39,189 nt of DNA from Spirochaetota bacterium (GTDB lineage: Bacteria > Spirochaetota > Spirochaetia > Treponematales > Breznakiellaceae): assembly GCA_023398155.1 (NCBI GenBank), contig JAEWSV010000338.1, positions 1-39,189 on the forward strand, read 5' to 3'. The stretch's first letter is position 1. The number at the start of each line of letters is the position of its first letter. This document shows, piece after piece, positions 36,846 to 38,626 of the stretch. Below the pieces are notes generated by a model. That model was not told the DNA's origin. It made no database searches and saw only the letters and a program-made list of their open reading frames with translations. The translations under genes were made by a program, and so were the position numbers.

Positions 36846-38626
36846 AGCACGAGCTTGCCGCCGCGAAGGAACTGGACCGAACGGCGGCGAGCTTCGAACA
36901 AAATATTCTAAGGAGAATTCGCGGCATTGTTGCTTCTTGGATGGAATCGGTCGATTCTCGAGGGGGCCCGGCTCTTGCTACACTCACGACTCCAAAGTAC
37001 ACAGCTCCGGATCCGGCTTTAGTTAGGGAAACAGAGAAACTCATCCTTTCGTCCTATCTCCTCGGGATTGACCATGCCGCGAGTCCTTTGGATCTCGCGG
37101 ACGACGGCGATTATGCAGCAATCCCCTTTGATGAAGCCGTCAAGTTCATGAAGTCCCGCGTGCCACTTACCAAAGCAGAATGGTCTGCGCTTGAGGAACA
37201 AGTCCGCTTTCGCGCCTTCACCGTAGCGGCACTTTCCGCCCCGGATGCAATTGAGAGAATCAGAAAGCACGTAATCGTTGCCGTTGAAAATGGCACGTCG
37301 CTGTCCAAGTTTTGGACGGCCGCAAAGGCGGAAGACGTCGCTGGATTAGGGTCATCCCCTTGGTATTGGGAAACCGTCTATAGAACAAATGTGCAGACCG
37401 CCTACAACGCAGGCCGTGCGACACAGATCATGAAGTCCAATCCTGAATACCTTGAGTTTATCGGAATCGAGGACTCGCGCCAAACCGCGATCTGCGCGCA
37501 GAGGAATGGCGTGGTACTCCCTGCGACGCATCCATTTTGGAAATCCAACTGGCCTCCGCTCCACTTCAACTGCAGGTCGACGGTTCGCGCGGTATTCAAA
37601 GGAGAGGCGGACGCCCTTCGGGCCCAGAACAACAGCTGGAAGCCGACAGATGACGAGGAGCTGCGGGGAATATCCGGGTCGAGGGATGGGTTTGGAGGAA
37701 ATCCGATCAAGACGGGAAGTTTCTACATGCTCACGCCGCAAATGATCCAGCGTGCGGAAGAATATGGCCTGATCGGTGACATCAAGGAGTTCGCTAAGGA
37801 GTTGGGTTTGAAGAGCTATCGGATAAAGGGGATCTCTCAAGCTGCAAAAATAAGTTCGTCTTCAATGCCTGTTACTACCGAGAAAGAACCAAAGGACACC
37901 GTCCCAATATTTAAGAAAACATCTGATGCAGAGGTGTGGGTAATAGAATCAAAGCTTGCCGATTCATGTTCATTCAAAGGTTTTGATATTGATGTAGTCC
38001 AAGAATTGGTTGAAGGACTGAAGGAAGATATGGAAAAATATCCAAAGGCAAGATCTTCGATGCAATTCTTTGGTTCAATAAAGGAACGAAACTCTCGGAT
38101 ACGTACGTGGTGGATTAAGGAGCGCGTCCCAACATATACCGCAGTAGGATTCGACGAAAAAAAGGCAGCCGTACTTGCAAGGAAAGAAATAGATGGGATG
38201 TTACGAAAGAACGGGTATATCCCAAAGCCGGGGAGTATCGCCCAATATTCCCCCATGAAAGGATTCAAAGGGGTCTCAATCAATGACAAGTACGCTACGG
38301 ACTACAATTCCTTCAGAGCTCTAGTAGAGCGAGATATGCAGAGCGGCCATTTCCCACAAGGTACAGGTACCATTACGGCTGTTGCACGGCATGAAATGGG
38401 GCACGCTCTCGATGATGTAACTGGACTCTCGAGCGATGGGGCCCTATTATCGTACTGGGAATCACTCTCGAAGGACGACATCAGGTTTGGGCTGTCAGGT
38501 TATGCAACGAATAGCGTTCAAGAGTTCATAGCAGAGTCCTGGTCGGAATATACAGTTTCTCCGAACCCGCGAAGCATATCGCGAAAGGTCGGTGAAATGC
38601 TTGTAGCTCGTTTGAACAGGAGTTAA
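36842..38626 (+). CDS. MuF-like minor head protein fused to a C-terminal HExxH zincin-like domain (594 aa)
   Basis: The MuF core ends ...NWPPLHFNCRSTV...GFGGNP at about 37705. The C-terminal ~300 aa carry HEMGH (38390-38404) and SGYATNSVQEFIAESWSEY (Glu codons at 38522 and 38534). Confidence 0.75.
   Translation: MKHELAAAKELDRTAASFEQNILRRIRGIVASWMESVDSRGGPALATLTTPKYTAPDPALVRETEKLILSSYLLGIDHAASPLDLADDGDYAAIPFDEAVKFMKSRVPLTKAEWSALEEQVRFRAFTVAALSAPDAIERIRKHVIVAVENGTSLSKFWTAAKAEDVAGLGSSPWYWETVYRTNVQTAYNAGRATQIMKSNPEYLEFIGIEDSRQTAICAQRNGVVLPATHPFWKSNWPPLHFNCRSTVRAVFKGEADALRAQNNSWKPTDDEELRGISGSRDGFGGNPIKTGSFYMLTPQMIQRAEEYGLIGDIKEFAKELGLKSYRIKGISQAAKISSSSMPVTTEKEPKDTVPIFKKTSDAEVWVIESKLADSCSFKGFDIDVVQELVEGLKEDMEKYPKARSSMQFFGSIKERNSRIRTWWIKERVPTYTAVGFDEKKAAVLARKEIDGMLRKNGYIPKPGSIAQYSPMKGFKGVSINDKYATDYNSFRALVERDMQSGHFPQGTGTITAVARHEMGHALDDVTGLSSDGALLSYWESLSKDDIRFGLSGYATNSVQEFIAESWSEYTVSPNPRSISRKVGEMLVARLNRS

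Follow-up and report, generated by a model that had tools for sequence, protein, structure and literature searches.

A lethal-factor-like zincin module on the MuF head protein of a Mu-like transposable phage, and its co-varying small partner gene

Here we describe a gene fusion in a 39,189-nucleotide stretch of DNA from a Spirochaetota bacterium (hereafter the window; positions 1 to 39,189 of contig JAEWSV010000338.1, assembly GCA_023398155.1). The window carries a temperate, transposable phage, recognizable by its Mu-type transposase, Mu Gam and GemA, and the gene that follows its portal encodes a MuF minor head protein with a C-terminal extension predicted to be a zinc metallopeptidase (zincin), most closely related to anthrax lethal factor (LF). 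A short open reading frame (ORF) lies directly downstream and co-varies with the zincin module among relatives. Taken together, these features favor, with a probability of roughly 0.6, the reading that the protease is active, is delivered by the virion and has a co-evolving partner gene; we infer for it a role in early host takeover or anti-defense.

Results

A predicted zincin follows the MuF core

Judged by its profile matches, the N-terminal part of the protein is a MuF/gp7 domain. PF04233 (Phage_Mu_F) matched residues 139-248 with 56.8 bits against a cutoff of 29.6, TIGR01641 (phageSPP1_gp7) scored 52.5 bits against a cutoff of 39.65, and phrog_220, annotated as 'minor head protein and DNA pilot', spanned residues 75-294. 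The TTG start codon of the gene overlaps the stop codon of the Mu-type portal gene directly upstream, and the module runs in the order Mu gp27-like gene, terminase, portal and MuF, which places MuF next to the portal. An alternative ATG at 36941 would give the 561-residue product that is on record (P0001, 100% identical over the query); tblastx similarity to the nearest relative, locus L083, reaches back to 36842. An initial annotation of this DNA, made from the sequence alone, had proposed the MuF identity and had placed the end of the domain at a GFGGNP motif near 37705, with about 300 residues to follow. Both proposals hold: GFGGNP occupies residues 283-288 and ends at nucleotide 37705, and 305 residues remain.

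In the full-length AlphaFold model, which has a predicted local distance difference test score (pLDDT) of 75.5 and a predicted template modeling score (pTM) of 0.51, the MuF core is modeled at pLDDT 80-95 and the C-terminal domain at 93-98. Between them lies a linker of about 60 residues that falls below pLDDT 50 at residues 292-297 and 321-348. Modeled alone with 51 homologues, the C-terminal domain reached pLDDT 97.4 and pTM 0.92 with AlphaFold2.

The extension contains the pair of motifs on which the initial annotation had based its protease assignment. HEMGH is encoded at 38390-38404 and continues as HEMGHALDD to 38416, and SGYATNSVQEFIAESWSEY, residues 552-570 (38495-38551), begins 35 residues past the first His. 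HExxH arose in 0.15% of shuffles of the 305-residue extension; HExxH followed by Y-x6-E-x3-E arose in 0.001% of these shuffles and has a single occurrence in the window's six-frame translation. Because the pair is rare in shuffled sequence and is also invariant in homologues, it is not a product of chance. In the model of the isolated domain, HExxH lies in one helix (model positions 160-176), and E561, E565 and E569 lie in a later one (model positions 208-221).

To recover homologues, the domain was searched exhaustively with HMMER against 1.84 billion representatives of clusters at 50% identity. This returned 1,111 homologues at E≤1e-3, of which 588 passed E≤1e-10. Conservation was read from the best 150 of the 1,111, which share at most 50% identity. 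The His, Glu and His of HExxH are invariant (150/150), as are Y554, E565 and E569 (each 150/150) and G411; E561 and S552 are each present in 149 of 150, and the Asp at +3 of HExxH in 138 of 150. The upstream half of the domain (residues 352-470) has conserved motifs of its own that are specific to the family. The catalytic set appears complete, with H517, H521 and E561 as predicted zinc ligands, E518 as the probable general base and Y554 as a putative transition-state stabilizer, the roles that such residues have in LF and the Pro-Pro endopeptidases (PPEPs).

This pattern bears on whether the domain might be a catalytically dead structural or DNA/portal-binding extension that has kept a zincin fold. 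Inactive enzyme-derived domains do occur on MuF proteins, an example being the inactive PBECR domain of Mu gp30 (Iyer et al., PMC5512222), and the window protein departs from the consensus at a few conserved positions. However, all five catalytic positions are intact here and are invariant or present in 149 of 150 representatives, the pattern that purifying selection on catalysis would produce, and we regard a dead domain as very improbable.

Database annotations of the extension point in the same direction. It matched the C-terminal third (positions 395-608) of phrog_324, 'head morphogenesis', at E 1e-15, and also phrog_7153, 'zinc-finger protease'. Searched alone against Pfam, it drew only Gemin7 at E 0.2, and a word-indexed protein search drew no match; a SinR match obtained with phmmer against the PDB (E 0.01) was judged spurious. 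None of the profile searches assigned the region a non-protease fold. A peptidoglycan-degrading role was set aside, as similarity to cell-wall peptidase families appeared in none of the searches. Single-sequence searches were in general uninformative, and the family came to light only through the exhaustive HMMER search.

Lethal factor and the Pro-Pro endopeptidases are the nearest characterized relatives

The initial annotation had likened the motif pair to that of LF, a likeness supported by the profile comparison and by the fold ranking. When a profile of 51 domain sequences was compared with all PDB sequences, every match below E 0.03 was LF (3.9e-5 to 0.02, the first of them at 3.9e-5 to 7e-4); PPEPs came next (E ~0.2), together with a protein described as 'ATLF-like domain'. 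The profile alignment places H517, E518, H521, Y554 and E561 on LF H686, E687, H690, Y728 and E735, so that the family motif HExGHxxD aligns to LF HEFGHAVDD and E-F-I-A-E to LF E735-F-F-A-E739. Foldseek comparison of the model with the PDB ranked LF and PPEP-1/2/3 first (the top 28 protease matches), with probabilities up to 1.0 but weak E-values. Among the predicted viral structures of BFVD, the best matches were metagenomic entries named 'Minor capsid protein' and 'Lethal factor' and, from Mycobacterium phage Rope, the MuF-like minor capsid protein, with E-values between 8e-7 and 1e-4.

In Pfam, the ATLF model was matched weakly by 11 of 87 full-length relatives (best E 3.5e-5) and was the sole recurring protease match among them. 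The MPTase-PolyVal model (PF18818) matched neither the window protein nor any of the 87 relatives; it matched a neighboring gene at one locus, L055. The assignment of the extension to a zincin closest to LF is supported, on the strength of about 55 aligned residues, which carry the link to peptidase family M34, and of the fold ranking. Because the ATLF model stays below threshold, we refer to an uncurated lethal-factor-like (M34-like) zincin family, in which 'LF-type' denotes the nearest known relative and not membership of a curated family.

The C-terminal module differs among closely related MuF cores

Close relatives were sought with residues 90-289 of the MuF core as query, which returned 33 loci with cores 31-68% identical to that of the window. 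The closest (62-68% identical) include metagenome-assembled genomes (MAGs) of Treponemataceae and Spirochaetes. Cores 56-68% identical to that of the window bear at least five types of C-terminal module, or none. The first is the LF-like zincin of the window (L177, L179 and L204; also L083), the second is LPD3 (PF18798; twelve loci, listed as L180-L191 and L205), and the third is a second zincin with the signature HEFGH...EVFA[ND]LF (L176, L181, L203 and L206). The fourth contains HE[IV][LN]H (L192 and L194-L197) and the fifth contains Cys (L193), both without a Pfam match. Short MuF proteins without any extension also occur in the lineage.

BLASTP homology to relatives with other modules ends at residues 324-397 (nucleotides 37814-38032), and the earliest of these end points coincide with the start of a dip in GC content at third codon positions (GC3). 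GC3 is 0.28-0.42 over codons 321-440 compared with 0.55-0.78 in the MuF core, and overall GC is 0.375-0.425 at 37800-38200 compared with 0.53-0.60 in the core. The AT-rich stretch from which the initial annotation had suspected a swapped-in module is thus real, yet it does not span the whole extension, only the end of the linker and, in the protease domain, the N-terminal half. The swap itself finds stronger ground in the comparison of relatives, with alternative modules on cores 56-68% identical and a break in homology at residues 324-397, than in AT-richness alone. Relatives that share the module are 65% identical to the window protein in the core compared with 32-48% in the zincin. Family-wide, the zincin is the better conserved half, with a mean identity of 33% compared with 18% for MuF. 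These comparisons support the view that the C-terminal module is an exchangeable cassette.

A small coupled ORF co-varies with the zincin

An ORF of 52-56 codons occupies the same coupled position in every zincin-type relative of the lineage (L083, L086, L177, L179 and L204), and its product combines an acidic N-terminal helix with a Pro-rich segment that follows. By contrast, the LPD3-type and short MuF genes of the lineage have no small ORF and lead straight on to the protease/scaffold gene, and the second zincin type is followed by a conserved 79-residue ORF of its own. Across the wider family a coupled ORF of 40-130 residues is present at 118 of 142 loci. These figures derive from permissive ORF calling and, in the close lineage, from modest numbers.

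Two recurrent families of small ORF were found among loci L006-L164. The first (53 loci; for example, L035 6954-7103) is about 50 residues long with the consensus M.K.EF..KAKE.GY..E.I...P.E..L.E.P. The second (14 loci; for example, L023 6690-6869) is about 60 residues long, contains Cys and has the consensus MIGPEP.C..CKH...AFPDGIPEEI...H..PYPGD.GI.FE. Neither has a Pfam match at threshold, and the 56-residue ORF of the window had no family match. A pattern scan for the small-ORF family was unproductive, there being no conserved stretch to scan with. Independently, three distant homologues of the commonest family were found, and all three directly follow long MuF genes ending in a zincin.

At loci L165-L168, a 632-residue MuF protein (gene 885-2783) precedes a member of the first small-ORF family and ends in a different zincin variant, with the motifs FHEFGHHIS and, after a long insert, GVEAFAEMFSA. 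The small-ORF family is therefore not bound to one zincin subfamily.

A small ORF that co-varies with a zincin module is the pattern expected of a toxin-immunity pair, a putative designation that parallels the published interpretation of small ORFs downstream of MuF toxin genes as immunity genes (PMC5576092). In the producing cell, the small partner would most likely neutralize or chaperone the protease, or else help to load it. If the pair were strictly an inter-bacterial weapon, particles released by lysogens would carry a growth-arresting protease into non-immune competitors, and the 56-residue protein would protect the lysogens. The architecture and the small downstream ORF do fit the MuF toxin model of Jamet et al., as do the polymorphic modules with their co-varying ORFs and the temperate nature of the phage. 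Nevertheless, we consider this quite unlikely. Few copies per virion are expected, and Jamet et al. class peptidases as low-toxicity effectors (PMC5576092). The small ORF lies in a late operon, where expression in a lysogen is not evident, and it lacks a family match, Imm-SuFu being the sole immunity family listed for LF-like toxins.

The family is widespread in prophages and uncultivated viruses

Most homologues are 480-650 residues long with the domain at the C-terminus. Of the 87 full-length relatives compared with Pfam, 54 matched Phage_Mu_F and eight Phage_min_cap2. Pattern-limited scans located 90 loci across bacterial genomes from many phyla, as well as 306 loci in IMG/VR; the domain always forms the extreme C-terminus. 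When 50,697 phage records were queried by tblastn with three single sequences, only four matched, all of them temperate-phage records of Clostridium tetani; neither the window domain nor a proteobacterial-type relative matched any of these records. The family is thus seen mainly in prophages and uncultivated viruses. A tblastn search of plasmids with a member lacking MuF gave no match, and an alignment-seeded word search gave only 10.

A custom HMM revealed that some members carry the zincin without MuF. One of these adjoins ArdC-N/MPTase-PolyVal and Zeta-toxin genes (L055), another lies beside two protein kinases (L062) and a third near a serine recombinase and ThiF (L030). A fourth (L044), which has a coupled small ORF, is flanked by oxaloacetate decarboxylase and a UvrA-like gene. 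That the zincin also occurs without MuF, outside head modules, argues against a capsid-specific role.

This distribution bears on another account of the domain, in which the zincin would be a cis-acting or capsid-internal processing protease that cleaves its own linker, the portal or MuF during assembly or ejection and has no host target. Processing has been proposed by Iyer et al. for the zincins of phage polyvalent proteins such as P1 DdrB (PMC5512222), and cleavage could plausibly occur in the long flexible linker. Furthermore, one locus encodes a triple fusion of Portal_Mu, MuF and zincin (L013) and one protein carries two zincin copies (P0002), for both of which the release of parts would make sense. 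We hold this to be an appreciable, if minor, possibility. Most MuF proteins, close relatives included, function without an extension or with non-protease modules, so processing appears unneeded. The window protein has no further cargo domain for autoprocessing to release, and a Mu gpI-like protease/scaffold gene of its own (18615-19676) is present in the phage. A host target is therefore likelier than pure self-processing, given also the occurrence of the domain outside head modules, and the co-varying small ORF suits an inhibitor better than it suits an assembly step. A role as the capsid maturation protease was rejected because of the separate gpI-like gene and the sibling MuF proteins that lack any protease.

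Coordinates and phage context

Table 1. Coordinates of features in the window (positions count from its first nucleotide).
Feature	Position	Strand	Basis
MuF-zincin fusion gene	36842..38626	+	single ORF, 594 aa, TTG start
MuF / SPP1 gp7 minor head protein core (aa 139-248)	37256..37585	+	PF04233, TIGR01641
Flexible linker (aa 290-351) and module junction	37709..37894	+	low pLDDT, BLASTP end points, GC3
Lethal-factor-like (M34-like) zinc metallopeptidase domain, predicted (aa 352-594, 243 aa)	37895..38623	+	homologues, model, profile
HEMGHALDD	38390..38416	+	predicted zinc-binding H517 and H521; predicted catalytic E518; conserved D524 at +3
S552-x-Y554...E561-F-I-A-E565...E569	38495..38548	+	predicted catalytic Tyr and third zinc ligand Glu, second helix
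56-aa ORF, candidate cognate immunity/inhibitor protein	38629..38799	+	GGAG upstream, start 3 nt past MuF stop, translationally coupled
Mu-type portal gene	35595..36845	+	phrog_113 portal, E 7.5e-63; PF06074 Portal_Mu on source contig
Diversity-generating retroelement (DGR) reverse transcriptase	449-1735	-	phrog_1423, E 1e-138
DGR template repeat	1616-1732	-
DGR accessory ORF	1753-2160	-
DGR variable repeat, at the C-terminus of a 1383-aa tail fiber (2114-6265)	2123-2239	-

The remaining observations concern the phage as a whole. In the nearest relative, L083, the head genes are collinear in the order terminase, portal, MuF, 56-residue ORF, protease/scaffold and capsid. In the window, the late block of protease/scaffold, major capsid, tape measure and fiber genes (449-19676) lies on the minus strand, inverted with respect to L083, and the head genes are therefore split over two divergent arms (449-19676 and 23657-38799). 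The inversion may reflect a genuine rearrangement or a join made during assembly of the metagenomic contig (ERZ27268874 k141_55622). Composition is strongly mosaic when 34000-38800 is compared with 4000-19700 and 24000-33000: GC3 is 0.60-0.64 in terminase, portal and MuF, 0.82-0.94 in major capsid, protease and tape measure, and 0.85 in the transposase; overall GC is lower, at 0.50-0.58, at the DGR end (1-4 kb) and in the central region (20-23 kb).

The DGR at 449-6265 on the minus strand is complete, and seven of seven mismatches between its template and variable repeats fall on template adenines. At the opposite end of the window, 39030-39189 on the plus strand encodes the N-terminus of a 3-methyladenine DNA glycosylase I (tag; Pfam Adenine_glyco, E 2.9e-16), cut by the window end, where the public gene call gives a minus-strand SBP_bac_5 fragment instead. 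The tag gene may be host flank or phage cargo; if it belongs to the host, the phage ends between 38800 and 39030. A comparison of the two window ends revealed no inverted terminal repeats.

Discussion

A few copies of SPP1 gp7 and of 80alpha gp44 reside at the portal within the capsid and leave with the DNA (PMC5576092, PMC12323379). By analogy, the MuF/gp7 module of the fusion protein would position it, likewise in low copy number, at the portal on the inside of the capsid, from where it would exit along with the DNA. The tether of about 60 residues would join this module to a C-terminal zincin of the gluzincin type that, once delivered to the newly infected cell, could cleave a protein target. 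The likeliest target would be a host protein involved in defense or physiology, and its cleavage might bias early infection or the lysis-lysogeny outcome.

Several results weigh against a virion-delivered active protease with a co-evolving partner. The window protein is off consensus at near-invariant non-catalytic positions, namely D516R, N572V and H504F, the last with an adjacent H503. In the Foldseek comparison with the PDB, E-values were weak (0.06-1.5, with TM scores of 0.3-0.46), and the Pfam ATLF model (PF07737) gave the window protein no match at E≤1; kinship to M34 is therefore distant. Autoprocessing is equally compatible with the architecture of the protein (PMC5512222). The small ORFs of the lineage are weakly alike. 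Lastly, when the divergence of MuF was compared with that of the zincin in a Mantel-type test on 87 distant relatives, r was 0.14, an uninformative value, and the alignments were saturated.

A virion-delivered protease would matter for the biology of the phage. If the enzyme is delivered and active, a temperate, transposable phage would introduce a finished enzyme into the cell ahead of the expression of any of its genes, and this could offer a route to disabling host defenses or to steering the choice between lysis and lysogeny. The family is large, lacks a curated model or a studied member and is almost absent from cultured phage records (four of 50,697 in the three single-sequence queries), so that one characterized example would annotate thousands of genes now called 'head morphogenesis' or 'minor capsid'. 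The lineage of the window also constitutes a natural experiment, in which five alternative modules sit on near-identical MuF carriers, and only some of these modules come with a small partner gene.

One may go further and propose that the zincin and its coupled small partner form a widespread two-gene protease-inhibitor cassette (>1,100 clusters), mounted on MuF or on other carriers. The protease would then be injected with the DNA and cleave a host immunity or stress-response protein, and in the producer the Pro-rich partner would inhibit the protease as a pseudo-substrate. We think it unlikely that this proposal holds in full; if it did, the family would represent a large, uncharacterized set of virion-delivered anti-defense proteases.

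How does this locus compare with known systems? With regard to M34 (MEROPS; ATLF, PF07737), the window protein shares HExxH with an Asp at +3, and it shares the Tyr that precedes the Glu ligand by 7 residues, a spacing identical in LF, in an E-F-x-A-E helix. The His-to-Glu distance is 44 residues here compared with 49 in LF, as aligned; in PPEP-1 it is 43. The sequence likeness to M34 is limited to the surroundings of the active site, and the carrier here is a phage head protein, whereas there it is a secreted toxin.

Among the domains of phage polyvalent proteins, LF-like zincins are the most common, and HHpred matches to the LF structure 4dv8 have been cited for them (PMC5512222). Like those MPTase-PolyVal zincins (PF18818), the domain described here is an LF-like zincin on a protein that would enter the cell with the invading DNA, and one described phage clade has an Asp 3 past HExxH, as here (PMC5512222). 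Further points of contact are the LPD3 domain of sibling MuF cores, which was defined in the polyvalent-protein study (PMC5512222), and the ArdC-N/MPTase-PolyVal genes that adjoin some zincin members lacking MuF. In contrast to a giant polyvalent protein, the window protein is a simple two-domain fusion. It resembles SPP1 gp7, 80alpha gp44 and Mu gpF in having the MuF core, in being encoded after the portal, and in the expectation that few copies are present and are ejected with the DNA. As studied, those proteins lack a protease module; Iyer et al. describe the PBECR domain of Mu gpF as inactive.

The closest parallel lies with the MuF polymorphic toxins (Jamet et al., 2017), a link that the initial annotation had drawn and that agrees with the literature (PMC5576092, PMC3482391, PMC5512222). 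In both, MuF comes right after the portal and ends in an enzyme domain of a toxin class, a small ORF (<150 residues) lies directly downstream, the phage is temperate, and C-termini are polymorphic on related cores. Metallopeptidases make up 20% of 191 MuF toxins, and the locus shows every testable hallmark of the class (PMC5576092). Zhang et al. list the LF-like toxin domain only with delivery by Photorhabdus virulence cassettes (PVC) and the type II secretion system (T2SS), and not with MuF (PMC3482391). Ct_MAD (Jamet et al., 2017), considered as the identity of the domain, is probably different, as nodes 1-19 and 149-169 of the 251 in its HMM have a weak consensus and no HExxH-like motif in those segments. 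The MuF polymorphic toxins are vastly over-represented in Firmicutes prophages, whereas the carrier here is a Mu-like transposable phage with its nearest MuF cores in Treponemataceae and Spirochaetes MAGs, and the zincin matches no Pfam toxin model at threshold. A phage-delivered toxin fusion of this type has thus been described before, and the locus is a well-supported new example and not a new kind of system. It departs from the published examples in its Mu-like transposable phage outside Firmicutes, its zincin family without a curated model and its recognizable Pro-rich partner ORF.

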